Below, in pieces: positions 17,646 through 53,830 of a stretch of 64,000 nt of DNA; positions within the stretch are counted from its first letter, which is position 1, and each line of letters starts with the position of its first letter. Location of the stretch: the NCBI GenBank assembly GCA_965208835.1, contig OZ242358.1, forward strand, positions 4,448,001 through 4,512,000. The letters are read 5' to 3'. A program made the translations under genes and the position numbers. The DNA comes from Candidatus Latescibacterota bacterium (GTDB lineage Bacteria > Latescibacterota > UBA2968 > GCA-2709665). The notes beneath the pieces were generated by a model, which was not told the origin of the DNA, searched no databases, and saw nothing but the letters and a program-made list of their open reading frames with translations.

Positions 17646-17816
17646 GGGCAGACAGGAATGTCCGCCCCACCCTCAAAGTGCAGGCGCCCACAAGGGACGC
17701 CCCTACACTGCAAACTTGGCCGGGTGAGAGCGTGCCGTGATATGGCAATTCGCAGCGGCGCAGCGGTGTTGCATAATGCGTCGCTCGTCGCATTTTGCAA
17801 CAGTGGGAGGGCCATC
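17646..17816 (-). repeat. Conserved 3' tail module (boxes + two REPs), copy after 17817..20336
   Basis: GTGG-REP 17646-17670, GTAG-REP 17683-17706, boxes 17767-17783 and 17786-17802. Confidence 0.85.
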
Positions 17817-20336
17817 TTATACGGACTGGCCGAAGGCGTTCGCCAGGATCACGAAGTCCGAGAACCCGACCTCACCGTCGCCGTCCAGGTCAAAGCGCGG
17901 GTCGTAGTCGGCCTCGCTACGGCCTGTTCCAAACTTCCTTGCGAACTGGACAAAGTCTGCGAAATCCACCTGCCCGTCGGCGTTGAGGTCGGGGCTGCCC
18001 TGCGCGTGGGCGCTGAACACCGCCGGTGTCAGGCCCGCCGCCCGCGCCACCACCGTGTTCCTCCCCGCTGCGGGACCCAGCGTCAGCGTCGTGGCGGCGT
18101 TGCCACTCGTATCGGCCCTGGCCGACGCCGGCCGCACCTTCCCGCCGCCTTCGGTGACGCTGAACAAGACCGGCATGCCCGGAAACGGGTCCCCGTGCCG
18201 GTCCCACACCGACACCACGAACGGCGCCGGCAGCGACGTCCCTGACGTGCCCCTTTGCCCATCCCCGGACACGAGCGTCACGCGCTCGGGGCGCTGCCGC
18301 ACCCACTCCGACGTGTCCCACAGCTCTATCGTGCCGCTGAAGCCTCCCACGGCCAGCACGGACCCGTCGTGCCAATAGGCCAAAGACGTGGGGGACCCCG
18401 TGTGCGGCAGCCGCGCGTAGATCTTCCCCGTGGCGGCGTCGCGCACGATGACCGTGCCCTCGGGGCCGCCGCTGGCCAGCGTCTCCCCGTCCGGAGAAAA
18501 CGCCAGAACATTGACGCTGGGCGCATGCACGATCTTCATTTCGGCGACTGTATTTCGCGTGGTCACGTCCCAGAACGCGATCACATCCGAGGCCGCAGCC
18601 AGGGTCCTGCCGTCCGGCGAGGGCGCAATCCTTTTTAAACCCTTCTCGCCAGGCCGCACGAGGACGCCTCGTACTCTACGCGCGGCCCAGTCCCACAACC
18701 GGATGGAATTGTCGTAGGAAGCCGACGCCAGAACACTGCCGTCGGGAGAAAACAGCAAATGCTCGACCGGTCGCGTATGCCCTTTGAGGACGCCCGTCAT
18801 CTCGCCCGTGGCCGCGTCCCACGTCTTCATATTGTCCTCATCGGTAAATGAAGCCGACACCAGCGTCGCCCCGTCGGGCGAGAACGCCAGCGCAAGGATC
18901 CACCACGTATGCCCTGCCAGCGTGCCCGTCCGTTTTTGCGACGCCACGTCCCACAGCCCGATCCAGCCGCTGGCTGTCCCTGCCGCCAGCGTCGACCCGT
19001 CCGGCGACAGCGCCACCGCCCAGATTCTCTCATCCCCCACGTCCAGCGTGGCCAGCTCCTCATACGTCTTCGTATCCCACAGCCGGACGGTGCTGTCCGT
19101 CGATCCCGATGCCAGCGTCGATCCGTCCGCCGAGAGCGCGAGCGATACGTAACGTCCTTCGCCGTGCCCTTCCAGCGTGCCCACGTGATACGGCGACCGC
19201 TGCGCGAACCTCCATCGCCCGTCTCCATGATTGCCCTGCTTGTCCACCGCCTGGAATTGGATAAAATGGGACGGCGGGTCCGACAACGTCGTGATAACTC
19301 GGTTAGACCAGCTGGGGTTGAGGCCGTCATATTCGTACTCGATGACCGCTTCCTTCTCACCCGAGAACACCCTGCAGTCCTTGGCATCGAGTGACAGGTC
19401 ATAACTGGTAGTTTTTTGGTTAACCAACACGAACAGCAGATGCAGGCCGTGACGCGCTTCGAGCTTCAGACGCACGGTGATGCGCTCCGCGCCCTTATCA
19501 TACCACAAGGGCGACAGAAGCTCCACCGTGGGCCGTGCGTCCCAATCCGCCCTTTCGAGGGGTACCGCCGCGTTTAAAAACGGACTCACCGACAGGAACG
19601 CCGCGCTGCATGCCGATATTCGGATGGGTCTGTCGCCTTTGATAGAGCTGGAACCCAGGATGCCGTGATCGTTTCGATAGTCGTGCCACATCAACCCGAA
19701 GGCGTGCGCCAGCTCGTGCGCGGCTGTAGAGAACCTGGTTCTGCCGGGAACCAGCAAACTCCCGCCGTCTTTACCCCCGGCCGCGATGCCCGCCGGGCCG
19801 TTTCCCAGCCAGAACTCACGACGGTTGTCAATCATGACGAAGTAAACCACGCCCCTTCGATCGAACACCTGCCAGACCTCCTCGAATGTCAGATAGCTCA
19901 TTCGGTCGCGATAATAATTGTTGGCGTGCGCCCCGTCCAGGCGATGCACCACGGGCGCTCCGTACCCGTCCGCCTCGTACCGGAACGTCGTGTACCCGTA
20001 CCCGTGCGCTTCCATCTGCTCCCCGAAGAGCCGCTGCAGTCGCACCATCCACGCCTTCATCGTATCCACCAACGACTGACGGTACGGACGGTCGTTCGGC
20101 AGAAAGTAGATCATCCGCACCGTACGCGGCTCACCCGCGTTCAACTCCGACGTCCGCTTGCCCGCAACCTGTGCGTTCTCAACTTGCCACCCCTCCTCTT
20201 TCAACACCACGCCGTGAAACACGCTGTCAGACCGCACGGGCGAAGCGGAACCCGTTGCTGGCAGCCACAGCATGCCAACAAAGCACGACCCCGCCGTCAC
20301 CCACGGCATCAGACGCAATACGCACCGTCGCAGCAT
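17817..20336 (-). CDS. Secreted zinc-metalloprotease-like + WD40 + Ig (Big_1-like) + EF-hand/dockerin-like protein
   Basis: Signal peptide; HELAHAFGLMWHD; multiple GH...WD repeats; DLNADGQVDFADFV...DLDGDGEVGFSDF. Confidence 0.9.
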   Translation of the reverse strand: MLRRCVLRLMPWVTAGSCFVGMLWLPATGSASPVRSDSVFHGVVLKEEGWQVENAQVAGKRTSELNAGEPRTVRMIYFLPNDRPYRQSLVDTMKAWMVRLQRLFGEQMEAHGYGYTTFRYEADGYGAPVVHRLDGAHANNYYRDRMSYLTFEEVWQVFDRRGVVYFVMIDNRREFWLGNGPAGIAAGGKDGGSLLVPGRTRFSTAAHELAHAFGLMWHDYRNDHGILGSSSIKGDRPIRISACSAAFLSVSPFLNAAVPLERADWDARPTVELLSPLWYDKGAERITVRLKLEARHGLHLLFVLVNQKTTSYDLSLDAKDCRVFSGEKEAVIEYEYDGLNPSWSNRVITTLSDPPSHFIQFQAVDKQGNHGDGRWRFAQRSPYHVGTLEGHGEGRYVSLALSADGSTLASGSTDSTVRLWDTKTYEELATLDVGDERIWAVALSPDGSTLAAGTASGWIGLWDVASQKRTGTLAGHTWWILALAFSPDGATLVSASFTDEDNMKTWDAATGEMTGVLKGHTRPVEHLLFSPDGSVLASASYDNSIRLWDWAARRVRGVLVRPGEKGLKRIAPSPDGRTLAAASDVIAFWDVTTRNTVAEMKIVHAPSVNVLAFSPDGETLASGGPEGTVIVRDAATGKIYARLPHTGSPTSLAYWHDGSVLAVGGFSGTIELWDTSEWVRQRPERVTLVSGDGQRGTSGTSLPAPFVVSVWDRHGDPFPGMPVLFSVTEGGGKVRPASARADTSGNAATTLTLGPAAGRNTVVARAAGLTPAVFSAHAQGSPDLNADGQVDFADFVQFARKFGTGRSEADYDPRFDLDGDGEVGFSDFVILANAFGQSV

Positions 20337-20440
20337 AACCGGATCCTCCCTTTGGTCTCATCCCAATGTCACGTCGACAACCGTCGCTCCGTCGTGTACA
20401 AACGGCTTCCGATACCGGCGTCATCCGTGCCGTTGGCAGG

Positions 20441-20641
20441 TCACGATCCGCCACCGCCGCGCGCGGCAGCGTCGCTTTCGATATACCCCGACAGGATCAC
20501 GAAATCCGCGTAGTTGATCGTCCCGTCGCCGTTCAGGTCCATCCGCCGGTCATACCCCGCGTCCGACCTGCGCAGACCCATCATCTTATTGAACAGCTTC
20601 GCGTCCGCGGCGTCGCGCCTCCCGTCGCCGTTGAAGTCGCC
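20441..20641 (-). pseudogene. 3' stump (dockerin-like domain) of an FN3/Ig gene
   Basis: Near-identical to 29602-29800; the intergenic 20337-20440 also duplicates 29498-29601. Confidence 0.85.
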
Positions 20642-20650
20642 TTACAGGAG

Positions 20651-20919
20651 ACCCCTCCCCCGGCCCCTCCCCGGCGCGGGGAGGGGTGCAGTGCCGGACA
20701 CCGTAATCTCCAGAGGTCGGGTTGATGTACGCGGGCAGACAGGATTGTCCGCCCCACCTTCACACGTGCTTCCTGACGGTCCGGGCGCCCACAAGAGACG
20801 CCCCTACACCGCAATCGTGGCCGGGTGATCCGGTACCGCGAATTGACAATTCGCGGCGCGGCAGGTGTGTCGCAAATTGCGCCGCTGATGTCGCATTATG
20901 CGACAGTACGAGGGCCATC
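20651..20919 (-). repeat. Conserved 3' tail module plus a third REP type
   Basis: CCCCTCCCC..GGGGAGGGG REP 20651-20688, GTGG-REP 20733-20757, GTAG-REP 20783-20807, hairpin 20836-20856, boxes 20868-20884 and 20889-20905. Confidence 0.85.
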
Positions 20920-23166
20920 TTACGCACCCTGTCCAAAGGCCGCGGCGAAGATGAGGAAGTCGGAGAACCCCACCTCACCGTTCCCGTCGAGGTCGAAGCG
21001 CGGGTCGTAACCGGCCTCGCCGCGGCTGTATCCATACTTCGCCGCGAACGTGACGAAGTCGCCAAAGCCCACCTCGCCGTCGCCGTCCCAGTCCGGGATC
21101 CAGGATGTACGGGTGGTGTGAGGTGACGTGTCCCATAGTTCGATGCGGGCCCTGGAAAGGGCCACTGCCAGTGTCCGGCCGTCCGGAGTAAACGCAATGG
21201 AAGAGATAGAGCCCGGATGGTTATACGACTCCAATACTTCTTCCCTACGCACGTCCCACAGGTAAATCGTGCCACGATCCATCACGGTTGCCAGTTTCCC
21301 GCCGTCAGGTGAAAACGCCAGATGCGTGGCGAGGGCCGAATGCGTTCTGGTGAGCACGGCGACCTGGTGCCACGCCGCCGTGTCCCACAGCCTGACGGTC
21401 CTGTCGAAACTGCCCGCCGATGCCAGGAGACCGCCGTCGGGTGAAAACGCAATCGATGCTATCACCTCCGTATGCCTGTCAAGCACGGCGACCTCCTGCC
21501 TGGCGGACACGTCCCACACCCGTACGGTCCGGTCCCGTCCCCCCGATGCCAGGAGACCGCCGTCGGGAGAGAACGCCAACGTTCTGATTTCATCCGTATG
21601 CCCGTCCAGTACGGCCACGGCTTCCCGCCGCGCCACGTCCCACACCCGTACGGTCCCGTCCCGTCCCCCCGATGCCAGCAGTCCTTCGGGAGAGAACGCC
21701 ACCGATTCGATCGTTCTCTTATGCCCGTCCAGTACGGCCACGGCTTCCCGCCGTGCCACGTCCCATAGCTTCACGGTTTTGTCCGTTACGCCCGATGATG
21801 CCAGAAGAACCCCGTCGTGAGAAAACGCCACCGAATTGACGAATTGCGCATCCCCGACCATCGTGGCCACTTCTTCCCGCCGCGTCAGGTCCCACAACCT
21901 GGCGCGACCGCTTTGCCCCCCCAACCACAGTCTGGTACTGTCTCGCGTCCCCATCGCCAGCAGGTCACCACCCGGAAAGATTGCGATATCGTAAATGAAT
22001 TTCGTCTCCACCGTAAGCGTGGCCACGTGATGCGGCGACGCCTGCGCGATAATAAGCCTTCCATCATTAGGCCGGTTCCCTTTAGTATCGACGGTTGTCG
22101 CCGGCAAATTGTGCGAGGTGGGGTATGAAAAGCTCGAATGGGACAGCGACGGGATCACCCCGTCATACTCGAACGACACGACGGCTTCCGTCTCTGCCGC
22201 CACGTCGCGGCACGCCTTCACTTCAGGCGTCAGAGAGCGGTCCTCCGGATTGCCCGTCCACTGGATCACCTGGTGCACGCCGTCGGGATCGGCCACGCGC
22301 CACGACACCGTAAAGCGCTCTGTGCCGGGCGCGTACCACACCGTGGGGCCCGCGAATTCAATCGTCGGATCGGACGTATAGTCTGTTCCCAGGGGTATCT
22401 CCGGATTGAGGAGGGGCGTCACCGCCAGATACCGCGCCGAGCACGCCGACAGCCGATCCGCATCGGCGCCAAACGACAAAATGTAGTCGTTGTCTCGGAA
22501 ATCGTGCCACAACAGCCCGAAGGCGTGCGTCAGTTCGTGGGCGGCAGTGCTGAAAATGAAGGCGCCTCCGACCAACGCTGAACCGCCATACTTGCCTCCG
22601 CTGGCGAGGCCGGCATAACGTCTGCCACCCGTCCCGTGCAGCAGACCGGTGCTGGTGTCAACGACGATGAAGTTGACCACGTTCTTCACGTCAAAGCGCC
22701 GAAATAACTCCCGCTGCACCGGCCCACCGGTTTCCTTGAGATAATACGCGTCGGCCTGGTCGCCGTCCAGACGGTGCACCACAGGGACGCCCGTAGCTTC
22801 CGCCTCATACCGGAACGTCATGTATCCATACCCGTGCGACGCCATCTGTTGGCCGAACCACGCCTGCAGACGCACCATCCTCGCCTTCATCGTGTCCACC
22901 AGCGACTGCCGGTACGGACGGTCGTTCGGTAGAAAGTAGAACATGCGCACCGTGCCCGGTTCGCCCGCGTTCAACTCCGACGACCGCTTGCCCGCTGCCG
23001 GGCCGCCCTCGCGGCGCCAATCCTCCTCATCCAGCAGCACGCAGGGATGCACGCTGTCACCAGGCGAGGACGCTGCGGCGCCCGCGGCCGTGAGGCACAG
23101 CACCGCAAGGCAGCGCGTCGCCAGCCAGATACAGGCGGAAAAACGATGGGTCACGCGTCTCTTCAT
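20920..23166 (-). CDS. Secreted zinc-metalloprotease-like + WD40 + EF-hand/dockerin-like protein (divergent paralog, no Big_1)
   Basis: HELTHAFGLLWHD; tandem near-identical WD40 blades; DWDGDGEVGFGDF. Confidence 0.9.
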   Translation of the reverse strand: MKRRVTHRFSACIWLATRCLAVLCLTAAGAAASSPGDSVHPCVLLDEEDWRREGGPAAGKRSSELNAGEPGTVRMFYFLPNDRPYRQSLVDTMKARMVRLQAWFGQQMASHGYGYMTFRYEAEATGVPVVHRLDGDQADAYYLKETGGPVQRELFRRFDVKNVVNFIVVDTSTGLLHGTGGRRYAGLASGGKYGGSALVGGAFIFSTAAHELTHAFGLLWHDFRDNDYILSFGADADRLSACSARYLAVTPLLNPEIPLGTDYTSDPTIEFAGPTVWYAPGTERFTVSWRVADPDGVHQVIQWTGNPEDRSLTPEVKACRDVAAETEAVVSFEYDGVIPSLSHSSFSYPTSHNLPATTVDTKGNRPNDGRLIIAQASPHHVATLTVETKFIYDIAIFPGGDLLAMGTRDSTRLWLGGQSGRARLWDLTRREEVATMVGDAQFVNSVAFSHDGVLLASSGVTDKTVKLWDVARREAVAVLDGHKRTIESVAFSPEGLLASGGRDGTVRVWDVARREAVAVLDGHTDEIRTLAFSPDGGLLASGGRDRTVRVWDVSARQEVAVLDRHTEVIASIAFSPDGGLLASAGSFDRTVRLWDTAAWHQVAVLTRTHSALATHLAFSPDGGKLATVMDRGTIYLWDVRREEVLESYNHPGSISSIAFTPDGRTLAVALSRARIELWDTSPHTTRTSWIPDWDGDGEVGFGDFVTFAAKYGYSRGEAGYDPRFDLDGNGEVGFSDFLIFAAAFGQGA

Positions 23167-23187
23167 ACCGGCACCTCTCCTTTCGCG

Positions 23188-23930
23188 TCAATCTCCCGAT
23201 GTTCCGGAATTTCCGGATCCGCCGTCTCTGGCAGACGCGTCGCGCTCGATATGCCGCGACAGGATCACGAAATCCGCCCAGTTGATGATGCCGTCGCCGT
23301 TCATGTCCATCCGTCTGTCAAACCCCTCATCGCCCGACCGCAGCCCGATCTTTTCATTCAATAACTTCGAGTCCTCCGCGTCGGCCCTGCCGTCACGGTT
23401 GAAGTCGCCTGACGAGATCATGATGAAGAACAGACGCTCTTCCGTCCGGCCTTCGCTATCGGTCACGGTCAGCGTCACGTCGAAGTCGCCGTGCTCCGTG
23501 GGCGTGCCCTCGATCTCGCCGTCGTCGTTGACGTCCAATCCCGACGGCTGCCCCGACAGCGAATAGGTATAGGGCGGCGCGCCGCCGGAGACGTCCACCG
23601 GTCCTTCCGAAAACGACGCGTTGAGCTCACCGTACATGTCGTTGATCGGCCCGATGACGATGGGCTCCGCCACGCGTATCCAGAACGAACTGCTGGACGC
23701 GTTGCTTCGGGCGTCGGTGACGTACGCGGTGATCTGCCAGGAGCCCACCGCCGGCGGCGAACCGTCAATCTCTCCGTCGGAGGCAATGGAAAGGCCCGCG
23801 GTACTTGCCGTGGGCGACAGACGGTACGTGTAGGGCGGGCATCCGCCGGCGGCCCTCACCTGTATCGAACCGATGGGCTCGCCCTTCGATGCCGCCACGT
23901 CCGAGATGGACCCGACCGACAGCGGCGGGC
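23188..23930 (-). pseudogene. 3' stump of an Ig/He_PIG + dockerin-like gene
   Basis: GGCPPYTY and GGAPPYTYSL Ig repeats, GDFNRDGRADAEDSKLLN; no signal peptide; homologous to the C-terminus of 29602..37041. Confidence 0.75.
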
Positions 23931-24001
23931 AGGCAGGCCGGGCACGGCCTCCTCAGTATGACAGGTTGTGCCGAGACCCGACAGACAGGTCATGCACACG
24001 C

Positions 24002-24191
24002 GGGCAGACAGGAATGTCCGCCCCACCCTAATAAACACATCTTCAGCGTGAGGCGGGCGCCCACAAGGGACGCCCCTACAGTGCCAACTTGGCCGGGTGA
24101 AAACGTGCCGCGAATGGGTCATTCGCGGCACGGCAGAGGTGTTGCAAATTGCGCCGCCAATGTCGCATTTTGCGACAGTTCGAAAGCCACC
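24002..24191 (-). repeat. Conserved 3' tail module
   Basis: REPs 24002-24026 and 24055-24079, hairpin 24104-24132, boxes 24140-24156 and 24161-24177. Confidence 0.85.
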
Positions 24192-26520
24192 TTACGCACT
24201 CTGTCCAAAGGCGCCGGCGAAGATGAGAAAATCCGAGAAGCCTACGATACCGTTGCCGTCCAGGTCGAAGCGCACGTCATATCCGTCGTCGCCCTGACCG
24301 AGTCCGAACTTTTGCCCGAACATGACAAAGTCTGCGAAATCCACCTGCCCGTCGCTGTTGATGTCTGGATTGCCGTGCGCGTGCGCGATGAACACCGCCG
24401 GGGCCAGGCCCGCCGCCCGCGCCTGCACGGTGTTCAGGCCCGCCGCGGAACCCAGCGTCAGCGTCGTGGCGGCGTTACCGCTCGTATCGGCCCTGGCGGC
24501 CCTTGTCGATACCGCGCCGCCGCCTTCGGTGACGCTGAACAAAACCGGTATGCCCGGAAACGGGTCTCCGTGCTGGTCCCGAACCGACACCACGAAAGGC
24601 GCCCCTAACGGCACGCCCGCAGCGCCGCGCTGCCCATCGCCGGACACGATGGTGACGCGCTCGGGACGCTGCCGCACCCACTCCGACGTGTCCCACAGCT
24701 CTATACTGCCCTCGGTGGTTCCCACGGCCAGCACGGACCCGTCGTGCCAATAGGCCAAAGACGTGGGGGACCCAGGGTGCGGCAGCCGCGCGTAGACCTT
24801 CCCCGTGGCGGCGTCGCGCACGATGACCGTGCCCTCGACGCCACCGCTGGCCAGCGTCTCGCCGTCCGGAGAAAACGTCAGAACGTTGACACTCGGCGCA
24901 TGCACGATCTTCATTTCGGCGACCGTATTTCGCGTGGCCACGTCCCACAACGCGATCACATCCGAGGCCGCAGCCAGGGTCCTGCCGTCCGGCGAGGGCG
25001 CAATCCTATTGATACCCGTCACTCCAGGCCGCACGAGGACGCCTCGTACTCTACGCGCGGCACAGTCCCACAGCCGGATGGAACTGTCGTAGGAAGCCGA
25101 CGCCAGAATACTGCCGTCGGGAGAAAACAGCAAATGCTGGACCGGTCGCGAATGCCCTTTGAGGACGCCCGTCATCTCGCCCGTGGCCGCGTCCCACGTC
25201 TTCATCTTGTCCTCATCGAAAAGGGATGCCGAGATCAGCGTCACTCCGTCGGGTGAGAACGCCAGCGCAAGGTTCCCCCACGTATCCCCCAGCGTGACCG
25301 TGCGTTTCCGGGACGCCACGTCCCACAGCCCGATCCAGCCGGTCTCCGTCCCTGCCGCCAGCGTCGACCCGTCAGGCAACAACGTCAGTGACCGGATATC
25401 GCCTTCAATCCCACGCAGCGTGGCCAACTCCTCGAACGTCTTCGTATCCCACAGCCGGACGGTCGTGTCTGCCGATCCCGATGCCAGCATCGACCCGTCC
25501 GGCGAGAGCGCGAGCTCTACGGGTCCTGTGCCGTACCCGTCCAGCGTGGCCACGTGATACGGCGACCGCTGCGCGAACGTCCAACCCGCAAATGCGCCTG
25601 GGTTGCCGCGCCTGTCGACCGCCCAGAATTGGATAAAATGGGACGGTGGGTCCGACAACGTTGTGGCATGTGGGGAAATCCTCCCGTCGTACTCATACTC
25701 GATGAAGGCCTCCTTCTCACCGGAGAATACGCGGCAATCCTTGATTCTGACGATAAAGTCGTTGGCAAAGGGGGGGAACAAGGATCACCAGCTGATGCAG
25801 GCCGTGCGGCGCTTCGACCTTCAGACGCACGGTGATGCGCTCCGAGCCCTCGTCATACCACAGGGGCGACAGCAGCTCCACGGTGGGGTTTGTGTCCCAG
25901 TCCCACCCGAGGGGCACCTGAGCGTTGAAGAACGGCTGCATAGACAGGAACGCCGCGCTGCAAGCCGACAGACGTTCACTGCCGCGGAAGATCGCAAGGA
26001 TATAACCCCCTTCGCGATGGTCGTGCCAGAGCATCCCGAAGGCGTGCGCCAGCTCGTGCGCGGCCACCCAGAACTCGAAACCGCCGGGGACGACCGCCCA
26101 CCCTCCATCCTTACCCCCAGCCGCCCTGCCTGCCGGGGCGCCAAAAGGACCCAGCGCGTCACCCCAGCGATTGTCGATCACGACGAACAGGACCACGTTG
26201 TTCGGATCAAACGCCTCCCGGACCTCCCTTTGCACCGTTGTTGTCGTACGGTCGTCATAATAGCGGTCGGCGTGCGCCCCGTCGAGGCGATGCACAACGG
26301 GCGCGCCGTTAGCGTCCGCCTCATACCGGAACGTCATGTTCCCGTACCCGTGCGATGCCATCTGCTCTCCGAACCACGCCTGCAGGCGCACGCACCGGTG
26401 CTCGCCCCCGGCAACCGCGGGCGAGCCACTGATCGTCGCGGCAGGCACACACAGCAAGGCCACGATGCATCCCGCCAGAAACGGCAGACCGGACAACCCT
26501 CGATTACCCCTTCCTTGCAT
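24192..26520 (-). pseudogene. Metalloprotease-WD40-Ig-dockerin paralog, frameshifted at a C7 tract, with an in-frame N-terminal deletion
   Basis: ORFs 25717..26541 and 24192..25781 join at G7 25770-25776; HRCV is fused directly to RLQAWFG. Confidence 0.85.
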
Positions 26521-26537
26521 ATCCCGCTCCCTGTCAT

Positions 26538-26792
26538 TCAATCGCCGGATCCACCCGACTCACCCGATCCGGAACTGCCCCGCGCGGCCGCGTCGCTTTC
26601 GATATACCCCGAGAGGATCACGAAATCCGCATAGTTGATCGTCCCATCGCCGTTCAGGTCCATCCGGCGGTCAAAACCCGCGTCCGACCTGCGCAGACCC
26701 ATCATCCTGTTGAACAGCTTCGCGTCCGCGGCGTCGCGCCTGCCGTCGCCGTTGAAGTCGCCCGGCAGGGCGACCGTCATCCTGAACGACGT
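26538..26792 (-). pseudogene. 3' stump (dockerin-like domain) of an FN3/Ig gene
   Basis: TSFRMTVALPGDFNGDGRRDAADAKLFN...; begins directly at the end of the REP at 26793. Confidence 0.85.
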
Positions 26793-26998
26793 GGACAGAC
26801 AGGAATGTCCGCCCCGCCCTCGCGCCAGCTTCCTGACAGTGCGGGCGCCCACAAGGGACGCCCCTACACGGGCAACGGGTCCGCGTGATCCGGTACCGCG
26901 AATTGCCAATTCGCGGCACGGCAGCGCCGTCGCGATATGCCTCTCATGTGTAGCAAATTGCGTCGAGTGTTGCATTATGCGACAGTGGGAGGACCATC
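26793..26998 (-). repeat. Conserved 3' tail module
   Basis: REPs 26793-26817 and 26843-26867, hairpin 26896-26916, boxes 26949-26965 and 26968-26984. Confidence 0.85.
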
Positions 26999-29601: not shown

Positions 29602-32600
29602 TCACGATCCACCGCCGCCGCGCGCGGCCGCGTCGCTCTCGATATACCCCGAGAGGATTACGAAGTCCGCATAGTTGATCGTCCCGTCGCCGTTCAGGTC
29701 CATCCGGCGGTCATACCCCGCGTCCGACCTGCGCAGACCCATCATCTTATTGAACAGCTTTGCATCCGCGGCGTCGCGCCTGCCGTCGCCGTTGAAATCG
29801 CCAGGCAAAGCGACGGTCATTGTAAAGGACGCTTCCTCCTGGCGCTTGCCCTGGTCTTTCACGATCACCGTGACCGTGGCGCTGCCCAACTGCGTGGGCG
29901 TGCCGCCGATACTCCCGCCCGAAGAAATGGTGATGCCCGCGGGGGCGCTTTCCAACGAATACGTGTACGCCCCCCTGCCTCCTGATGCCGACACCTGGAT
30001 CGGGTCCATGTCCAGCTGCCACGTCACCACCACGTCCGATATGGACCCGATCGACAGCGCCCGGCTGACGTACATGGTAAAGTCGGTTTCAGCCGTTTCA
30101 GGTCGAGCGTCGGTGACGGTCACCGTAATGATGAACGTGCCGAGGGCGGTTGGCGCGCCACTGATAACACCCGTCGACGTGCTGGACGAGATTCCGGCGG
30201 GTCTACCAGACGTTGAGAACGTGTACGGCGTTTCACCACCCGAGGCGGACGGTGTAATCGAAGAAATCGTCTTATTGACGTCTGCATCCACGTCGTCAAT
30301 GTCCGCAATCGTTAGCGGCGGGACAATGACCCTGATGATGAACGACTTCTCGCCCGTGCAGCCCGACGCGTCCGTCGCCTCCACCGTCACGTTGAATTCG
30401 CCGCGAACTCCGGGCGCCCGACCGCCGATGCCACCGCCGGCGTCTACCTCCACCCACCCGGGGCCGCTCTTCCTCCGGTACCTATACTGGCCCCTGCCCC
30501 CCGATGCGCTCGCCGTGATCGATGGCAAATCCTTTTTCACCTCCACCGTCACGTCCGACAGCCCGCCCACCGTAATCGTCGGACACGCCACGGTGACTTT
30601 GATCGTCCCGGCGCCGGTATTCCGTTGCTCATCCGTCGCCGTTACGTTGAAGGTGTAGTTGCCGGGCGTCGCGTCTGCAGACGGCGCAACGGTGTATACG
30701 TTGCTCGCCGTCTTTCTCGCCCACGCCAGCCCGACAGGGTTCCCGAACGTCTTCGCTCCGCATCCCCCCGTCGCACTCACGCTCACCGTTGCCGTCCCAC
30801 CGGCCTTCACCGTCACCGGATCCGGGCTCTGCGCGACCGTAATCGCCGGACAGTTCACCGTGACGTTGATCACCCCGGCGCCGGTGTTCCCTTCCGCGTC
30901 CGTCGCCGTCACGCTGAAGGTGAAATTGCCGGGCGACGTGTCCGCAGGCGGCGCAACGGTGTATTGATTGCTCGCCGTCTTTCTCGCCCACGCCAGCCCG
31001 ACAGGGTCCCCGAACGACTTCGACCCGCATCCACCCGCCGCACTCACACTCACAGTTGCCGTCCCGCCGGCCTTCACCGTCACCGGATCAGGGCTCTGCG
31101 TGACCGTAATCGCCGGACAGTTCACCGTGACGTTGATCGCCCCGGTGCCGGTATTCCCTTCCGAGTCCGTCGCCGTCACGCTAAAGGTGAAATTGCCGGG
31201 CGACGTGTCTGCGGGCGGGGCCACGGTGTATTGGCTGTCCGTCCCCTGTTTTTTTGTCACCCACGCCAGCCCGACGGGGTCCCCGAACGACTTCGACCCG
31301 CATCCCCCCGTCGCACTCACGCCCACCGTCGCCGTCCCGCCAGCGGTCGCCGTCACCGGATCGGGGCTCTGCGTGACCTTAATCGCCGGACAGTTCACCG
31401 TGACGTTGATCGCCCCGGCGCCGGTATTCCCTTCCGAGTCCGTCGCCGTCACGTCAAAGGAGTAGTTACCGGGCGACGTGTCTGCGGGCGGGGCCACGGT
31501 GTATTGGTTGTCCGTCCCCGGTTTTTTCGTCACCCACGCCAGCCCGCCCGGATCCCCGAACGACTTCGACCCGCATCCCCCCGTCGCACTCACGCTCACC
31601 GTCGCCGTCCCGCCGGCCTGCACCGTCACCGGATCGGGGCTCTGCGCGACCGAAACGGCCGGGCATACAACCTCGACCGTGAATGAACCTGTACCCGGAC
31701 ACTCGTTCGCGTCCTGAATGCCGACGTTCACGGTATGCGTGCCAGACGCGTCAGGCGCGCTCGTCACGGAGATCGTGCCCCCGGCGTTGATCGTCACCCA
31801 ATCCGGCCCGCCCGTCTTCGTAAACGTATGGTCCGGCTTACCTCCCGACGCCGTCGCCGCGGCCGTCTCGGAGCCGCCTGCCTGCACCGTCACCTTGCCC
31901 GGACCCGCGTATCCAATTGAAGCACACGTCACTCTCACTTTGATTGTCCCCGTGCCGGTATTCCCTTCCGCGTCCGTCGCCGTCACGCTAAAGGTGTAGT
32001 TGCCGGGCGCCGCGTCTGCTGGCGGCATGACATCGTATTGGTTGTCCGTCCCCTGTGTTCTTGTCACCCACGCCAGCCCGCCGGGGTCTCCAAACGACTT
32101 CGACCCGCATCCCCCCGTCGCACTCACGCTCACCGTCGTTGCCCCGCCGGCCTTCACCGTCACCGGATCCGGGCTCTGCGACACTGCAATTGCAGAACAC
32201 GAACGAGGGGTTACCGTAATCCGGAACTGGCAACTCTCAGATGCGCCGTCGCTGTCGTTAACCCTCACCGAGACATCGTAAGCGCCTTCCGGCCCGGCCG
32301 TCCCGGTGATGGTCGCTTTTCCTTTATTCGCTGTAAGCGTCAGCGTCTGTCCCGATGGGCGCACGGACAGCCGTTGGAACGAATACGGTGGAACGCCCTC
32401 CCACGCGCTTGCCGTCGTTCTGATGGCGCCACCCTCCGTTACTGTTATGTCCGAGGGGCACATGATCCCCAACGGCGGCGGCGGGGGACTGACGACGGTA
32501 ATGGTGAATTGCTCGTCGTCGTGATTTCCCGCATCGCCGGTGTCTCTCACCCGCACCCTCACCTCGTGCCTGCCGGGCGTCGACGGCGCCGTGCCGTGGA

Positions 32601-47460: not shown

Positions 47461-47479
47461 GTGTCTCAGAATGAGACGC
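47461..47479. promoter_or_regulatory. Operator-like palindrome upstream of the BCCT-TBDR pair
   Basis: GTCTCA-GAA-TGAGAC. Confidence 0.4.
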
Positions 47480-47563
47480 TTACACCTGAAAGATATGCGG
47501 TCTTTTAATTTCCGCAACCTCTACATTTCCTGTTTACGACCACCTTTTGCCTTTTCAGGTGGT

Positions 47564-48877
47564 TTATTTCCTGGTTTCTCCGGCGCGTACCAGCGCCTGT
47601 TTCATCGCGATGGGGCCGATCATCTGATTCACCGCTATCACCGCGACGATTACCGTCACGAAGGCTTCGCCCCAGCCCGGAAAACGGCGGGTGACCTCCA
47701 GAGCCAGTCCCAGGCTGACGCCGGCCTGCGTGAGATAGGCCAGACCCGCGATGCGGTTGAAGCGGGGAGGATCGCCGCCAAGGCGCCCTCCTGCGTACGC
47801 GCTCAGGTAGATGGCCCCGGCTCTCACGCCAACGAGCAGAATCGCAACGGTCCACGTCTGCATCAGGGCGTCCAGGTTCAGGCCCGCTCCCGCCAGCGTA
47901 AAGAACAAAACGTATACTGGAAGACCGACCGATTCAATCGCTTCTATGAAGCGGGAACCCTGACGGGAGACGTTCTGCACGGTGAATCCGGCGGTAACGC
48001 AGATCAGCAGGGGCTCGAGATGGATACTGAGGCCGTACGCCTCTTTAAGATACGCGGCGAACCCGTGCGAGATGCTGGTCACCAGAAGGGCCGTACCCAG
48101 CAACAGCAGCGGTAGGTTCGCCCGGACCCGGTCAATATAGAAGCCCAGCGCCAGCCCCACGCCCAAACCCGCACCGATGCCCAGCAGGACTTCCACGCTC
48201 AGGCCGGCAATGAATCCCAGGTCCAATGCGGCGGCGGGCGACATCACCACCTCGCAGAACGAAATCGCGGCGCCGAACAGCACGATCACGAAGACGTCCA
48301 GCGCCACGGTGACGCCGAGCGCGGTTTCGGTGAACGGGCCCGTCGCACGTGTCTCGTTTACAATGGCGATGGCGCTGGAAGGCGACCGCGCCACGGCGAG
48401 TACGCCGAAGAGCGAGCCCACCGTCAGCAACTCGAGATTCGAAAAGGATGCGGTGAACGGCAGCAGCGGTGCTGCAAGGAACACGAATGTGGTGACGATG
48501 ATGAAGACGATGGTGGTCTGTGAGAGGATAGAGTGCAGGATGACGCTCATCCGCTCCCTCAGTTCGGCCATCCTCAATTCGCCGCCCGCCGCCAGTGCGA
48601 TGAAGGTCACCGCCAGCTCGTTCAGAAACCCGAGTTGGCCCACGGCTTCTCTGGTCAGGAAGCCCATCAGGTAGGGTCCCGTGAGCATGCCGACGCAGAG
48701 GTATCCGGTTATCCGCGGGAGGTGCAGCCGGGAGAGGACGTGGCCCGCCGCGTAACCGGAAAGCAGGAGCAGACCGACAACCAGCGTGGTGTAGGCGCCG
48801 GGAGCGTCGCCGGGCGGGGTCGAGCCGGCCCAGGCCATGAGCAGACTCAGGGCGATGAAGACGAAAATCAGCCTCAT
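47564..48877 (-). CDS. Cation:proton antiporter (CPA family)
   Basis: LPRITGYLCVGMLTGP, IALAAGGEL, QAGVSLGLA; start ATGA-coupled to the upstream gene. Confidence 0.85.
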   Translation of the reverse strand: MRLIFVFIALSLLMAWAGSTPPGDAPGAYTTLVVGLLLLSGYAAGHVLSRLHLPRITGYLCVGMLTGPYLMGFLTREAVGQLGFLNELAVTFIALAAGGELRMAELRERMSVILHSILSQTTIVFIIVTTFVFLAAPLLPFTASFSNLELLTVGSLFGVLAVARSPSSAIAIVNETRATGPFTETALGVTVALDVFVIVLFGAAISFCEVVMSPAAALDLGFIAGLSVEVLLGIGAGLGVGLALGFYIDRVRANLPLLLLGTALLVTSISHGFAAYLKEAYGLSIHLEPLLICVTAGFTVQNVSRQGSRFIEAIESVGLPVYVLFFTLAGAGLNLDALMQTWTVAILLVGVRAGAIYLSAYAGGRLGGDPPRFNRIAGLAYLTQAGVSLGLALEVTRRFPGWGEAFVTVIVAVIAVNQMIGPIAMKQALVRAGETRK

Positions 48878-50061
48878 GGCGTCTTTCCCAGCAGGCGTCG
48901 CGTCGAGGCCGGAGCGATGAGTTCGCTGGCGATGATGCCCAGCAGCACCACGGAAATCACTGCGTCTGTCACCTCGGAACGGTGGATCTGGTGCAGGTTG
49001 ACCACGATGGCCACGGCCATTCCCCCGTGAGAAAGCAGACCGAGACCGAGGCCGCTCAACGCTCGGGATCCGGGCAGAAACAGGCGGACCGAAACGAAGC
49101 CGCCAAGGGTCTTGCCGAGGGTCCGGACGAGGACATAGACAGGCACCAGAGCCAGAAGCCAGACCGATTCGATACGCCATCCGGCGCCCACCAGGATGAG
49201 AAAGATGATGTAGATGGAGTGTTCGCCTCTCAGGAGCACCGTGCGAATGCCCGCCCTCGCTCGTCCTCTCGCCAGATTCGCGACGATGACACCCGCGATG
49301 AGGTTGACCAGAAGCGGAGACAGGCTGAGGTACAGCGCTAGTCCTCCCGAAAAGGTTATGGCGCCCATGACGATCAGCAGCATCTCATCGTCCTTGAGGC
49401 GGTAGGTGGTCAGGGCAACGACCAGCAGACCGACGGTCAGGCCGAGCCCCGCCGAGACACCGATCCACGTGTAGGTGGACGCGCCGGCGTGCAATACGGC
49501 CAGGCACGAGATGAGACCGAACGCGGTCAGGCCGACCAGGTCGTCGATGTTCGATACGTTCGTGAGAAGCCGCATCAGCGGCCGCGCCGGGGCCGGCGTG
49601 TTTCGGGAAAACAGCGTGAGGCCGCTGGAAGCCGTGCCCGATGCCGCGGCCGCCAGCGTGACGGCGCCGATCACCAGCAGCTCCGTTTCGCGTGCATAGA
49701 GGTAGTGAAAGAGCAGCAGGAAGGGAACGGCCACAACCACAAGGGTGATCAGGCTCTGGACGAGCGCAGCGCCGAAGACCCGTCCCGGAATATGACTCAG
49801 CCGCCGAAACTCCCACTGAACGCCGAAGAGCATGCCGATCCACGAGAGGCCCATGCCCACAAACGGATAGAGGCCGTCGAGGGTCGCTGAGTCAAGCAGA
49901 TCGAGAACGGCGCCGCCGAGAAGAAATCCGACCAGGAGGTATTCGATACCGGTGAGAAAGAGGTTTCTGACACCGAGGGGCAGGCGGATATGGACGAAAC
50001 TGAGGCGGGAACCGACGAACGCGATCACGACGATCAGGATGGCGGCGAAGACCAGTTTCAT
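48874..50061 (-). CDS. Cation:proton antiporter-like membrane protein
   Basis: About 12 TM helices; YLLVGFLLG, IDD, GLGLLSHGGMAVAI. Confidence 0.75.
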   Translation of the reverse strand: MKLVFAAILIVVIAFVGSRLSFVHIRLPLGVRNLFLTGIEYLLVGFLLGGAVLDLLDSATLDGLYPFVGMGLSWIGMLFGVQWEFRRLSHIPGRVFGAALVQSLITLVVVAVPFLLLFHYLYARETELLVIGAVTLAAAASGTASSGLTLFSRNTPAPARPLMRLLTNVSNIDDLVGLTAFGLISCLAVLHAGASTYTWIGVSAGLGLTVGLLVVALTTYRLKDDEMLLIVMGAITFSGGLALYLSLSPLLVNLIAGVIVANLARGRARAGIRTVLLRGEHSIYIIFLILVGAGWRIESVWLLALVPVYVLVRTLGKTLGGFVSVRLFLPGSRALSGLGLGLLSHGGMAVAIVVNLHQIHRSEVTDAVISVVLLGIIASELIAPASTRRLLGKTP

Positions 50062-50393
50062 GGAGGTTCCCCGCCCTCCGGTCCAAGACGGAAATCGACG
50101 GGCAAGAGAAAGAGTGTTCCCACGCCGGGCCGCGTGAAATCGACACCGGTTTCCCGGAACAGCCGGATGAGCGGGTCGAGCAGCGTTCGGTCCTTTACGG
50201 GTGCGACGATCACGCTGGAACGGCCGGATCCTGCCGGCAGCAATCCGGCAAAGATGGGCACGTCCTCGGACAGGATGCGCTCCATTGGAGTCCCGTCCAG
50301 CACCGTTGCGCCCGTGATTTCCAGCTCAACGAGACCGGAGAGGACCTCGTCGAGCAGGTCCTCGCGGTAGAGTGTAATGATAAGCAGATGCAT
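50058..50393 (-). CDS. PII-like small regulatory protein
   Basis: LLIITL..EDLLDEVL..L.ELEITGATVLDG..M...G.GTLFLLPV fits the PII-like pattern. Confidence 0.65.
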   Translation of the reverse strand: MHLLIITLYREDLLDEVLSGLVELEITGATVLDGTPMERILSEDVPIFAGLLPAGSGRSSVIVAPVKDRTLLDPLIRLFRETGVDFTRPGVGTLFLLPVDFRLGPEGGEPP

Positions 50394-50432
50394 TGAAATA
50401 GCGTATTCGCCCGGGACTTCGGGATTCAAAGG

Positions 50433-50891
50433 CTAAAAAGGCTCCTGTGCGCGGATGATCTCCATAACTTCATCAGGAGACGCGGCTGCAAGGATCTGCC
50501 GCCGGATCTCCTCGCGGTCGAAAATGCGGGCGGTGCGGCTCAGAACGCTCATGTACGCCGGCATCGATATTTCGGAGGAAAGAACCAGGAAGATCAGGTG
50601 TACGGGTTGCCCGTCCAGACTCTGAAAATCGATGCCTTCCCCGGATACGCCCAACGCCGCGACCACGCCTTCGATGTCGTCCGACCTGGCGTGGGGTATC
50701 GCCACGTGCTGATCCACGCCGCTGGTCTTGATGGCTTCCTGTTCCAGGATGAGGCCGAGCAGCGCGTTGGGATCGGGCAGGTGGACCGACCGGCCGATCA
50801 TTTCGATCAGCTCGCGGATGGCTCCGTCCCGATCGGAACTGGTCAGGCTGAGTGCGATACGGTCGCCGGCCAATGCGTCGCAGAGTCTCAT
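50433..50891 (-). CDS. PTS EIIA (Ntr/fructose-type) domain protein
   Basis: VAIPHAR with the phospho-His; GIDFQSLDGQPVHLIFL. Confidence 0.9.
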   Translation of the reverse strand: MRLCDALAGDRIALSLTSSDRDGAIRELIEMIGRSVHLPDPNALLGLILEQEAIKTSGVDQHVAIPHARSDDIEGVVAALGVSGEGIDFQSLDGQPVHLIFLVLSSEISMPAYMSVLSRTARIFDREEIRRQILAAASPDEVMEIIRAQEPF

Positions 50892-50907
50892 AGGGCTGAT
50901 TTCCGGT

Positions 50908-52143
50908 TTACAGGATGTCCACAGTCGTCGTGCGCCGTTGCGGATCGAATGCGACGTACGTTGCGCCGTTCTCCTCGTAGACGGTCCCGCTTCCGAAGGC
51001 GGATCTGTTGTGCACGCGGGGAACGGGCGTGCCGTCTACCGAAACGGAATTGATGTCCCTGCCGGTGAATCGCAACGTCAACTCCGGTGTACGCACGGGC
51101 AGGTCGAGCGTAACCGTGTTGTCTTCAACGGCGAGTTCCGCCATCTCCCGCATGATGGCGTAGGTTGTAATCTCACTGCATTTGCGCCACCGGGTGCGTT
51201 CTCCGGCCGGATCGCGTTCCTTCAGCCGTCGGACAACGGTCTTGAAGGCGTTGAAACCCCGGCGGTCGGCGTCGTGAAGTCCGTAGAAGCCCTGCCAGTG
51301 GCTGATGAGGACGGCGGGATCTCCTGCGTCGATGAGGGCCGGCAGTCGTCCGCCCTGAAGGTCGGCCGTGATGTACTTGTCTGCGTTGACCTCTCCGTAT
51401 CCCGTCCAGGACCCCGTCCAGTCGCCGGTGCCGGCGATGATCTCACCCATAGCGGTACCGTTGTCCCGGTCTGGATACCAGACGGGCGTTTCCACGGCGC
51501 CGTGGGACACGCGCTTGAACAGGTAAGGCGTAGGATTGCCGGTGACGCGGCGGCAGGCGGCTTCGGCGCACCGTGCGTAGAAGTCGAGCGGATTGCCGAA
51601 TCCCCCCGGCGAGGTGACGCCGGCGGGCGTCAGGCCGACGTTCCGGAGGATCTCACAGGCAAGCGCGATGTAGTCCGTTACCAGTTCCTCCCGGTCCGTG
51701 GGCAGCCGGTCCCATCCCCACTGTTCCCAGAGGTTGGTGTCCACCGGCTTCAACGTCTCCAGGTCCACCACGAATGTGTGGGTCATCATCTCGGGGGTGA
51801 TATCGTAATTCGGAACGATGAGCTCCCTGCACATATCCAGCCAGCTCTCCTGCTGGACCCTGCTGAACAGCGGAAGCCCGTGGTCGATCCGTCCCAGCGC
51901 CGCCGGACACGGTACGACGCTGAACTTGCCCTTGACGCCTTCGTCAAGGCAGTATTCGGCGAATTCCCGCGTGAAGGACTCGGGGTGAACCACGGGAACG
52001 TCCTCCCACCGGCGGCGCTGACCGTCGATGGGGTTTCTGTCCCGCATGAAGAAGTAATTCAGGTTGACCAGCAGCGTGGAGTCATCGAAGATGATCGAGA
52101 GGGGGACGCGGTCCAGTGCGTGGCGGGCGATTTCAACGTGCAT
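50908..52143 (-). CDS. Hypothetical protein (possible polysaccharide-deacetylase-like barrel)
   Basis: 411-aa ORF; IIFDDS, THT and HWQ motifs; fold is a guess. Confidence 0.6.
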   Translation of the reverse strand: MHVEIARHALDRVPLSIIFDDSTLLVNLNYFFMRDRNPIDGQRRRWEDVPVVHPESFTREFAEYCLDEGVKGKFSVVPCPAALGRIDHGLPLFSRVQQESWLDMCRELIVPNYDITPEMMTHTFVVDLETLKPVDTNLWEQWGWDRLPTDREELVTDYIALACEILRNVGLTPAGVTSPGGFGNPLDFYARCAEAACRRVTGNPTPYLFKRVSHGAVETPVWYPDRDNGTAMGEIIAGTGDWTGSWTGYGEVNADKYITADLQGGRLPALIDAGDPAVLISHWQGFYGLHDADRRGFNAFKTVVRRLKERDPAGERTRWRKCSEITTYAIMREMAELAVEDNTVTLDLPVRTPELTLRFTGRDINSVSVDGTPVPRVHNRSAFGSGTVYEENGATYVAFDPQRRTTTVDIL

Positions 52144-52211
52144 CGGGGGGTTCCGTCGGGGCTCTGACCCGGTGAGACAGCCGTTCAGGGTCTACTGGCG
52201 TGAATGAAGTC

Positions 52212-53327
52212 CTAGTCCGCCGTCGCCCCGTCGAGAACCTGTCTCAGGCGCCGGGCGACGATTTCATCTTCACCGTCTTCCATCATGTAGGGCATGACTT
52301 CCACGCCCGTCCCGGTGTGGAAGAGCTCGATGCGCGGATCCGAATCGGAGAGTTGCCGCCTGGCTTCTTCCGGCGTGATACGGACGGTTTCAGCATCCCA
52401 GTCGATGGACAGCACAGGGGCGACGTTGGACCGGCCGGGCTGAAGGATGCCCGTCGTCAGGGTGGGGATATGCGCGATTGCGCCCGCGATGATTTCCAGC
52501 CGGCACTCCCATTCCTTCCATTCCGCGCTGTGGTCCCGCCGCACCCACTGTTCCACGGCGGCAAGCAGTCCCATCACCTCCTCCTTGCCGGCTTTCATGG
52601 GACGCGCGAGCGAATGGTGGGGTGCGCCGTTCATGAAAGCGGCGTGCAGGATGTCTTTTCTGCCCAAAACCAGGCCGGACGCTTGAGGGCCCCGAAGGCA
52701 CTTGCCGCCGCTGTAGGCAACCACGTCCACGCCGTCGGACAGGTAGGGATTCGGAACGTCGGGCCGCTCGGCGGCGGCGTCGACGAAGGTGGGCACGTCG
52801 TGTTTTCGGGCGATTCTGACAATCTCGGGTACGGTGATGGTTCCCCGGTCGGCCGCGTCGCCGAAGATGGCGATCATCGCCGTGGATTCGTCAACGGCAG
52901 CCTCCAACTCGAGAGGGGTCTCCACCTCGACAATTTCCACGCCCACCATACGGATGGCGTGGTCGTAGACGTGCCTGTGGGACGGCTGCGTGATAACCCG
53001 GTTCTTCATCCCGGACGTATCGGGCAGACGTTTCATTTTGTCCGGATCCAGGCCGGCCACGCAGGCGGCCGTGACCTGGCACAGCGCCGCGGCGCAGCCG
53101 CTGGTGACCATGCCCGATTCGCATTTCATGAGATCCGCGATCCGTGCGCCTACTTTTTCCATCAGCTCGTCCAGATGCACGTATGCCTTCGAGGCTTCAT
53201 GGATTGCCCGCCGGACCTCCGGCAGCATCAGGGAGCCGGAGATGATGGTGTAGGTCCCCATGCAATTGATCAGGGGACGTACCCCGATGGATTCGTACGT
53301 GGGTTGGGGCGCGGCAGACGTGGACAT
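52212..53327 (-). CDS. SelA-like/DgaE-type PLP-dependent enzyme
   Basis: GVRPLINCMGTYTIISGS, VDAAAE, YSGGKCLRGPQASG, RPMKAGKEE. Confidence 0.85.
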   Translation of the reverse strand: MSTSAAPQPTYESIGVRPLINCMGTYTIISGSLMLPEVRRAIHEASKAYVHLDELMEKVGARIADLMKCESGMVTSGCAAALCQVTAACVAGLDPDKMKRLPDTSGMKNRVITQPSHRHVYDHAIRMVGVEIVEVETPLELEAAVDESTAMIAIFGDAADRGTITVPEIVRIARKHDVPTFVDAAAERPDVPNPYLSDGVDVVAYSGGKCLRGPQASGLVLGRKDILHAAFMNGAPHHSLARPMKAGKEEVMGLLAAVEQWVRRDHSAEWKEWECRLEIIAGAIAHIPTLTTGILQPGRSNVAPVLSIDWDAETVRITPEEARRQLSDSDPRIELFHTGTGVEVMPYMMEDGEDEIVARRLRQVLDGATAD

Positions 53328-53521
53328 GTAAGTATCCCGTGGAAAGACGATACCGAGAGTGCGCGTTGTTCGACGGGGCCTCAGCACGGACGGGCCTGGC
53401 AACCGATATCAAGAGTCTACAACATGGACGTGGGGATTGCAAGTCCGATGTGGCCTGGAGCCGGCGGGGACGTTGGAAAGGGCGGATCGGCACCTTGGCA
53501 ACGCTGGGTGGGGAGCAATGC

Positions 53522-53830
53522 GTGCGCCCACAAGGGACGCCCCTACACGTGCAACGTGTCGGGCGAATGGGTACTGCGAATTGGCGTTTCACGGCGCAGG
53601 CAGATGTGACGCGAATTGTGTCACTGATGTCGCATTTTGCGACAGTGGGAGAGCCAGATTACGCGGTCTGCCCGAACGCACCGGCGAAGATGAGAAAATC
53701 GGGGAATTTGACACTGCCGTTTCAGTCCCGGTCGTAGCGCGATTCAAACCTGCGTTGCCGCGGCTGAACCGCAATTTCGCGGCGATTCTCACGAAGCTGC
53801 CAGAATCCACCCCGCCGCCGAGAACGCCAG
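53522..53830 (-). repeat. Orphan copy: decayed dockerin-like 3' end + tail module
   Basis: ...PDFLIFAGAFGQTA* ending at 53659; boxes 53607-53623 and 53628-53644; GTAG-REP ~53522-53546. Confidence 0.8.

Follow-up and report, generated by a model that had tools for sequence, protein, structure and literature searches.

In a 64,000-nt window of the genome of Candidatus Latescibacterota bacterium (genome G000; positions 4,448,001-4,512,000 of contig OZ242358.1), paired palindromic boxes of the form TGTCGCA-N3-TGCGACA stand just past the stop codons of WD40 genes with a dockerin-like end. We consider it quite likely that these boxes are enhancer sites of a sigma-54 activator encoded at G000:914198-916087; this predicted identity follows from the finding that the same box pair, together with a third box, precedes sigma-54 promoters, and that the base at position ±4 of the box co-varies with a residue of the activator's recognition helix. 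The window copies have no -24/-12 promoter at the required distance and are therefore not classed as working upstream activating sequences (UASs); on balance we favour the view that they are promoter-less activator sites which were co-duplicated with the 3' ends of the WD40/dockerin-like genes and have been conserved, most likely as high-affinity sinks.

Boxes were counted by mismatches in the arms of the query, and site strength is given in bits. With at most two mismatches the window holds 7 matches where 0.45 are expected, and none of 100 shuffles reached 7. As the initial annotation had described, the distance from the first box (box A) to the minus-strand TAA is exactly 14 nt at all five gene tails, and a second box (box B) lies 19 or 21 nt from it (Table 1). 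A similar box reported at about 3975, behind a leucine-rich repeat (LRR) gene, is present with one mismatch, but it is single and lies 158 nt past the stop. Since the five tails are paralogous, the constant 14-nt spacing reflects shared ancestry and not five independent placements.

Among 21 tails from 8 genomes, 20 have a gap of 14 nt. After near-identical tails had been dropped, 18 were kept for conservation analysis, of which 17 have the 14-nt gap and 12 entered the codon statistics. Here the box arms have a pairwise identity of 0.86 (box A) and 0.83 (box B) vs 0.56 at four-fold synonymous sites, with 0.69 for the 14-nt spacer and 0.59-0.61 for the positions beside the boxes. Passive co-duplication, which according to the initial annotation should leave the tails as diverged as neutral sites, does not account for such values, and the comparison indicates that the tail boxes are under selection.

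The genome encodes rpoN and 12 AAA+/HTH_8 proteins, every HTH_8 protein being found at an AAA+ gene. The candidate activator combines REC, Sigma54_activat (AAA+, GAFTGA) and HTH_8 domains; its gene adjoins that of a PAS histidine kinase and is flanked by boxes on both sides. Each of the 15 genus copies of the activator gene is preceded by a sigma-54 match, 96-104 nt ahead of the ATG, and by boxes near -190, -308 or -327; in 12 of the 15 a strong box follows ~200-400 nt past the gene; outside the genus, only 1 of 8 copies with a located start has a sigma-54 promoter of its own. In G004, G006 and G009 the enhancer box ahead of the activator's promoter is the perfect box itself. The sigma-54 matrix used throughout was hand-made from a consensus in agreement with the one quoted in PMC4941409, and may miss promoters.

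Over the whole genome, 8 of 37 intergenic sigma-54 matches have an upstream box of at least 10 bits, vs 3.4% of 1034 control regions. Intact three-box modules are located at 916168, 4364072 and 5006281. In intact modules generally, a box pair at about -230/-210 or -207/-188 is combined with a single box at about -93, and A/T-rich tracts are visible; such modules start 10-31 nt past the upstream stop, and in their layout a box pair comes after a stop. Variant modules with T at ±4 occur at 952191 and 963800, beside a paralogous activator. This paralogue, with Gly in the helix, belongs to a region (G000:C1:952191-966585) with genes for proteins of 3754 and 3524 aa, each of which has a three-box T(±4) module and a strong sigma-54 match. 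At three sigma-54 matches (G000:C1:3238011, 5110519 and 5114586) a different pair of motifs recurs upstream (about -80 to -100), probably the site of another activator.

The motif is a TGT-N11-ACA dyad and fits the TGT-N10-12-ACA geometry of Fis-type helix-turn-helix (Fis-HTH) proteins (PMC6615313, PMC4784862), and it is not confined to one lineage. Homologues of the activator, with 53-72% identity, come from records labelled Terriglobia, Bryobacterales, Binatia, Nitrospirales, Syntrophobacterales, Gemmatimonadetes and other Latescibacterota, and boxes are also present at their loci, often as a pair 18-19 nt apart that begins 10-100 nt past the activator stop; the order is then box pair, third box, sigma-54 match and mostly a large secreted or TadE-like gene. 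A box was found within 2.5 kb at 20 of the 32 parsed loci of the closer block (L149-L182) vs 2 of 44 distant loci, and the reversed-sequence control gave 0. The promoter geometry was taken from 23 of 26 cross-phylum loci, less one duplicate (L119), plus G000's own paralogue; L117, L158 and L177, with no sigma-54 match within 900 nt, were left out. In 23 of these 24 selected loci boxes stand ahead of the downstream sigma-54 match, mostly 182-229 and 84-95 nt away. Among the module targets, one protein is homologous to the WD40 protein of the window (35% over 599 aa, E 1e-92), and others are Ig-repeat proteins resembling the product of the window's giant gene.

Across these loci the base at ±4 tracks the helix residue aligned to Fis Asn84, the residue that reads ±4 in Fis (PMC4784862): with N or D the base is G in 68 of 78 half-sites, and with S or G it is T in 25 of 36, half-sites and related genomes being non-independent samples. 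Orthologues in the genus carry H at this helix position, and their boxes are of the G type. Fis itself prefers another base at ±4, so that the position agrees while the preference is new. We note that the kinase/activator pair recurs over several phyla at 53-72% identity (L155, L160-L182), in most cases with the same promoter module and then a gene for a large secreted or TadE-like protein behind it, which suggests that a switch for surface proteins has been shared horizontally. At locus L121 of G026, four tandem boxes with a 19-nt period lie past the activator gene.

In the G000 assembly (97.8% complete), palindromes with a gap of 3 number 12 perfect and 8 with one mismatch, vs 0-4 and 0-2 for the other gaps within 0-8. 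Perfect boxes occur in all 14 other genomes of the genus (3-14 each) and in none of the 26 other genomes searched, and the relaxed pattern gives 8-23 matches per genus genome vs 0-4 in the others. Proteins closely related to those of G000 mostly carry the label Candidatus Latescibacterota. Orthologous sites in different species are frequent, some of them within coding sequence, and the distances of sites to starts and stops vary widely. The flanks of the boxes carry a consensus (AAC...GTT) and are not merely self-complementary, which is the look expected of a protein site. An enrichment of boxes behind dockerin-tagged genes, as considered in the initial annotation, does not hold generally: of 73 dockerin-motif genes, 4 carry a box no more than 60 nt past the stop, all of them in the array of the window, and 5 carry one up to 700 nt upstream, 3 of these via the array. 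Of the 20 intergenic boxes beyond the window, 3 are no further than 1 kb from a dockerin-motif gene vs 3.5%, a weak trend. The low downstream count and the genome-wide copies at non-dockerin genes rule out a dockerin-specific box. We also rejected an origin by template switching or cruciforms, given flank complementarity near what the flank consensus predicts and the rarity of compensatory pairs, and a chromosome-structuring site, given boxes over both replichores with no clustering seen (no statistical test). The box after a methyltransferase gene (G000:C1:913955-913995) is extended to a longer hairpin with a T-run, the extensions differing between species, and it has possibly been co-opted as a terminator.

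Most of the strongest sites lack a promoter match. Within 400 nt of 19 of the 21 tails, no sigma-54 match exceeds 7 bits; the best scores at the four array tails are 0.6-5.4 bits, and the 12.4-bit match near the remaining window tail (Table 1) is probably due to chance. No sigma-54 match above 7.4 bits was found within 900 nt at 6 of the 7 operon heads examined, the window's included, and the giant gene heading the window array has neither a sigma-54 promoter nor a box within 900 nt upstream. Similarly, among genome sites that score 24 bits or more, 20 of 21 have no sigma-54 match at 70-260 nt, and the same is true of 58 of the 63 perfect sites analysed from relatives (of 117 counted there); for many strong sites the nearest intergenic match is tens of kb away, and promoter-linked boxes are mostly weaker than such orphan sites. 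Conservation reaches down to codons: at a box inside a hisG-like gene, CAA is kept in 13 of 14 genomes, AAT in 11 of 11 and ACA in 13 of 14, while the gene-wide use of these codons is 28%, 26% and 13% (14 of the 15 genus genes were parsed, and the outgroup copy was left out).

Based on this, we suggest that the kinase would phosphorylate the activator, which would then bind the three-box modules and open the sigma-54 promoters, in this genus presumably including its own. The stronger promoter-less sites would fill first and thereby set the threshold of self-activation. A promoter of the activator's own and abundant perfect orphan sites coincide, both being characteristic of the genus; we put forward the role of the orphan sites as a sink only tentatively. 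Several observations speak against our proposal. The genome richest in perfect boxes (14) is G005, whose 320-contig, 95%-complete assembly shows the paralogue and not the orthologue of the activator. None of 29 WD40-family genes tested has a full module upstream, which places most of the WD40 family outside the regulon. Within tail pairs the usual distance is 21 nt (16 of 21, including two degenerate ones), vs 18-19 nt for promoter-linked pairs, and the match between autoregulation and perfect sites amounts to essentially one evolutionary event in one lineage. The non-independent half-site counts include an S/G group that is mainly one paralogue clade, and the base preference at ±4 is not predicted by Fis, in which Asn84 favours a different one. 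Finally, a palindrome with the same arms and a gap of 5 marks WYL genes.

With the same activator, the tail boxes could be downstream enhancers of long range, contacting a sigma-54 promoter at the operon head by looping, as with RocR at rocG; we give this a modest chance of being correct. RocR acts from 1.5 kb, and partly from 15 kb, downstream (PMC4941409); one giant-gene/WD40 operon in G002 combines an upstream box and sigma-54 matches with tail boxes, and the strong box past most genus copies of the activator gene would also fit. What stands against looping is the lack of sigma-54 matches at nearly all operon heads, the distance of tens of kb that separates many strong sites from the nearest match, and the fact that tails persist where the upstream gene has decayed. 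Local action without sigma-54, in which the activator would be a roadblock or insulator past stops or a repressor of the next gene's sigma-70 promoter, seems to us only slightly less probable, both accounts ranking close to the sink. Non-window boxes 10-35 nt past stops (295836, 913967, 3344595, 4040652) and 70-125 nt before starts (4971801, 4093742) speak for it, several of these positions being kept in relatives; conserved sites deep within coding sequences and widely variable distances to starts and stops fit it poorly, and intact modules too begin close behind a stop, merely through their spacing. The tail boxes might also be relics of an enhancer whose promoter was lost to insertion of a repetitive extragenic palindrome (REP) and which was then passively co-duplicated: their layout is that of an intact module, the dispersed repeat begins a few nt past box B, and 3 of the 21 second boxes have decayed. 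This is an unlikely account, largely contradicted by arms that are far better kept than synonymous sites, spacer or adjacent positions, and by orphan sites that are stronger than promoter-linked ones.

We think it improbable that the perfect sites belong to another genus-specific DNA-binding protein (of nucleoid, partition or WYL type) sharing the half-site. The absence of an assembled activator orthologue from G005, the scatter of sites round the chromosome and inside genes, and the gap-5 palindrome would agree with such a protein, but the perfect box serves as the enhancer box of the activator's promoter in three genomes, all of the just 12 HTH_8 proteins lie at AAA+ genes, and gap-3 boxes are plentiful in G002 and G010 despite a broken WYL gene and no gap-5 sites. 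WYL was rejected as binder of the gap-3 box, because gap-5 sites track the WYL gene and gap-3 boxes do not. The gap-5 palindrome, found in most genus genomes and in G015, lies ~45-50 nt before a WYL-domain regulator gene adjoining a cas3-like gene (for example G000:C1:4041712-4041730, L072; L270-L292), with more copies inside genes; G002 and G010, in which WYL is broken or truncated, have no gap-5 site, and the palindrome is likely the WYL operator. The initial annotation had also offered an attC-like recombination site or a structured 3' RNA, in view of palindromes and hairpins at gene ends, and a gene-plus-tail unit is indeed present at several loci within the genus; both roles are nonetheless highly improbable. 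No RYYYAAC/GTTRRRY core pair (40-130 nt apart) surrounds any of the five boxes, the best score with the integron-integrase model TIGR02249 in the genome is 90.5 bits against a cut-off of 265, and the array junctions are variable. Tests for structure drew on the 18 tails named above and on a set of 15 tails: the covariation term is +0.04; in box A a single pair out of 126 is compensatory, in box B there are 24 A-C and 15 further mismatches vs 1 G-U, and a search of Rfam gave 0 hits. The protein-binding site that had been named beside these two roles is supported, and would now be narrowed to the site of a sigma-54 enhancer-binding protein.

Coordinates of the boxes, repeats and genes are collected in Table 1.

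Table 1. Boxes, repeats and genes of the window (positions within the 64,000-nt window; offsets of box B are measured from box A).
Feature	Position	Strand	Remark
Box A, 2 mismatches	17786..17802		14 nt past stop of 17817-20336
Box B	17767..17783		19 nt from box A
Box A, perfect arms (0 mismatches)	20889..20905		
Box B	20868..20884		21 nt from box A
Box A, perfect arms (0 mismatches)	24161..24177		
Box B	24140..24156		21 nt from box A
Box A, 1 mismatch	26968..26984		
Box B	26949..26965		19 nt from box A
Box A, perfect arms (0 mismatches)	53628..53644		after dockerin-like remnant
Box B	53607..53623		21 nt from box A
Single box, same motif, 18 bits, 1 mismatch	3975..3991		158 nt past stop of LRR/FG-GAP gene; search for sigma-54 promoter negative
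Weak sigma-54-like match, 12.4 bits, overlapping REP end	53514..53530	-	in 2 near-identical of 21 tails
Hairpin opening dispersed hairpin+GTAG-REP repeat	20836..20856		
Hairpin, same repeat, inner stem altered	24104..24132		
Hairpin, same repeat	26896..26916		
GTAG-type REP	17683..17706	-	
GTAG-type REP	20784..20807	-	
GTAG-type REP	24056..24079	-	
GTAG-type REP	26844..26867	-	
GTAG-type REP	53523..53546	-	
GTGG-type REP	17646..17670	-	
GTGG-type REP	20733..20757	-	
GTGG-type REP	24002..24026	-	
GTGG-type REP, GCGG variant	26793..26817	-	coordinates hand-counted
WD40 protein gene, C-terminal dockerin-like motif, 839 aa	17817..20336	-	
WD40 protein gene, C-terminal dockerin-like motif, 748 aa	20920..23166	-	
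Frameshifted WD40/dockerin-like gene	24192..26541	-	two open reading frames (24192-25781, 25717-26541)
WD40 protein gene, C-terminal dockerin-like motif, 832 aa	26999..29497	-	
Gene of 2479-aa fn3/Ig/dockerin protein	29602..37041	-	head of array
Frameshifted remnant of dockerin-like gene end	53659..53790	-	5' limit approximate

The tails carry further repeats beyond the boxes. The hairpins, including the one with a changed stem, and a GTAG-type REP after all five box pairs are present as initially described; a GTGG-type REP had been assigned to all four array copies, and it is seen in three of them, with a GCGG variant in the tail of box 26968. Hairpin and GTAG-REP also occur without boxes elsewhere in the genome (2006746, 1890076, 4856528), and REP prefixes match 35 times for the GTAG type and 24 times for the GTGG type genome-wide. 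As box and hairpin/REP each occur in the genome without the other, sequence comparison indicates that the hairpin and REPs are dispersed repeats separate from the boxes and that the tail is a composite. In the four sequencing runs, which are contigs of one sample, the joints listed near the tails sit at REP repeats and none at a box; with sides of 21-38 nt they are uninformative. IHF-containing BIME-1/RIB elements (bacterial interspersed mosaic elements, BIMEs) are REP composites as well. A search of the genome with PF01797 for a REP-associated tyrosine transposase (RAYT) gave no match; the open reading frame G000:493107-493715 has what we take to be a RAYT-like N-terminus and HUH motif, and a 16.8-bit sigma-54 match lies ~108 nt upstream of this RAYT-like frame (G000:C1:492983-493715).

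The genes themselves form a tandem array. Three of the five genes described as dockerin-ended have intact reading frames, whereas 24192-25781 makes up only the 3' portion of a gene broken by a frameshift and the copy of the tail at 53628 follows a remnant and not a gene. The label itself rests, for the WD40 genes, on a regular expression for a double EF-hand-like motif, since Pfam Dockerin_1 is listed for the 2479-aa protein only, the WD40 proteins being judged on their best 25 families. The five gene-plus-tail copies are paralogous, with 69-85% identity over long alignments, and 3' remnants of the giant gene recur at about 20480-20641, 23188-23898 and 26538-26791; the sequence comparison indicates that the array arose by tandem expansion of a unit comprising giant fn3/Ig gene, WD40 gene and tail, in which the giant gene was later trimmed at differing points. 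Three array units have a giant gene whose truncation begins shortly past a GTGG-type REP (26793, 24002 and 20733), at differing points, hinting at REP-associated deletions. Two remnants of WD40/dockerin-like gene ends, at 58194-58793 and 53659-53790, flank a TPR/GWxTD gene; at the corresponding locus G013 has an intact giant-gene/WD40 pair, G005 and G014 have WD40 genes, and G011 has only the hairpin and REPs. A 15-nt A-rich motif is common to positions 4027-4041 (+), after the LRR gene, and 37193-37207 (-), before the giant gene, and has one further near-copy in the genome.

The boxes can be compared with several known systems. The TGT-N10-12-ACA UAS class of Fis-HTH sigma-54 activators includes the sites of NifA, FhlA and 15 Clostridiales groups (PMC6615313), and it shares with the present case the TGT-N11-ACA dyad, the presence of several sites 100-250 bp ahead of a -24/-12 promoter and a linked GAFTGA/HTH_8 activator gene; here, in contrast, the strongest sites, those of the window included, have no nearby promoter, and some are intragenic and conserved. 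The E. coli Fis site (PMC4784862) likewise has G at ±7, T at ±8, an A/T-rich centre and a 21-bp footprint, and the recognition helices found through PDB sequence hits are nearly identical (GINRGTLRKK vs GIHRATLHRK). Unlike Fis sites, the boxes are far more sequence-specific, with a G at -4 and a C at -3 that are not Fis-optimal, and the candidate binder is a complete two-component activator. Downstream of Bacillus subtilis rocG, the site of RocR (PMC4941409) also lies just past the end of a coding region, but it doubles as an enhancer for the following operon, and a promoter is known 1.5 kb upstream of it; neither applies to the window array. GTAG REPs and BIME composites (PMC3733652) resemble the tails in having tagged hairpin repeats past stops beside a protein site, and this genome has a candidate RAYT-like gene; the boxes, however, are not part of the repeat, and REP/hairpin copies elsewhere lack them.

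Closest to the proposed role of the orphan sites are the decoys of PhoB, where added decoys alter the response of the auto-activated regulator (PMC8599769, PMC9725139). Promoter-less, intragenic sites of an auto-activated response regulator are common to both, self-activation being a prediction in our case; natural intragenic PhoB sites are reported to be unconserved (bioRxiv 10.1101/2023.02.07.527549), unlike the boxes, which are conserved down to codons. The kind of element, a sigma-54 activator site, is thus known, and the motif-regulator pair was not found in our literature searches, which did not cover most subscription journals or supplements, so that motif tables of the type in PMC6615313 could hold a similar site; PMC12993501 makes no mention of sigma, enhancer or dockerin.

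Taken together, the analysis attributes to an uncultured lineage, on sequence evidence only, a regulator with its DNA motif, a promoter layout of three boxes and a specificity switch that depends on one residue; in several phyla this regulator is associated with large secreted proteins. Should the orphan sites turn out to be common long-range enhancers, or relics, the result would be a routine regulon description. We speculate, as a bold reading with a limited chance of holding, that a horizontally shared two-component activator of large secreted Ig/WD40/pilus proteins turned self-activating in one Latescibacterota genus, and that 10-20 near-perfect promoter-less sites have been kept by selection as a natural decoy network that makes expression switch-like. 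Some sites of such a network would sit in the codons of housekeeping genes and some on gene tails, and amplification of the WD40 array would retune the switch as well. The conserved promoter-less sites allow a direct test of whether natural decoys can be selected, a question for which the answer from PhoB is negative.

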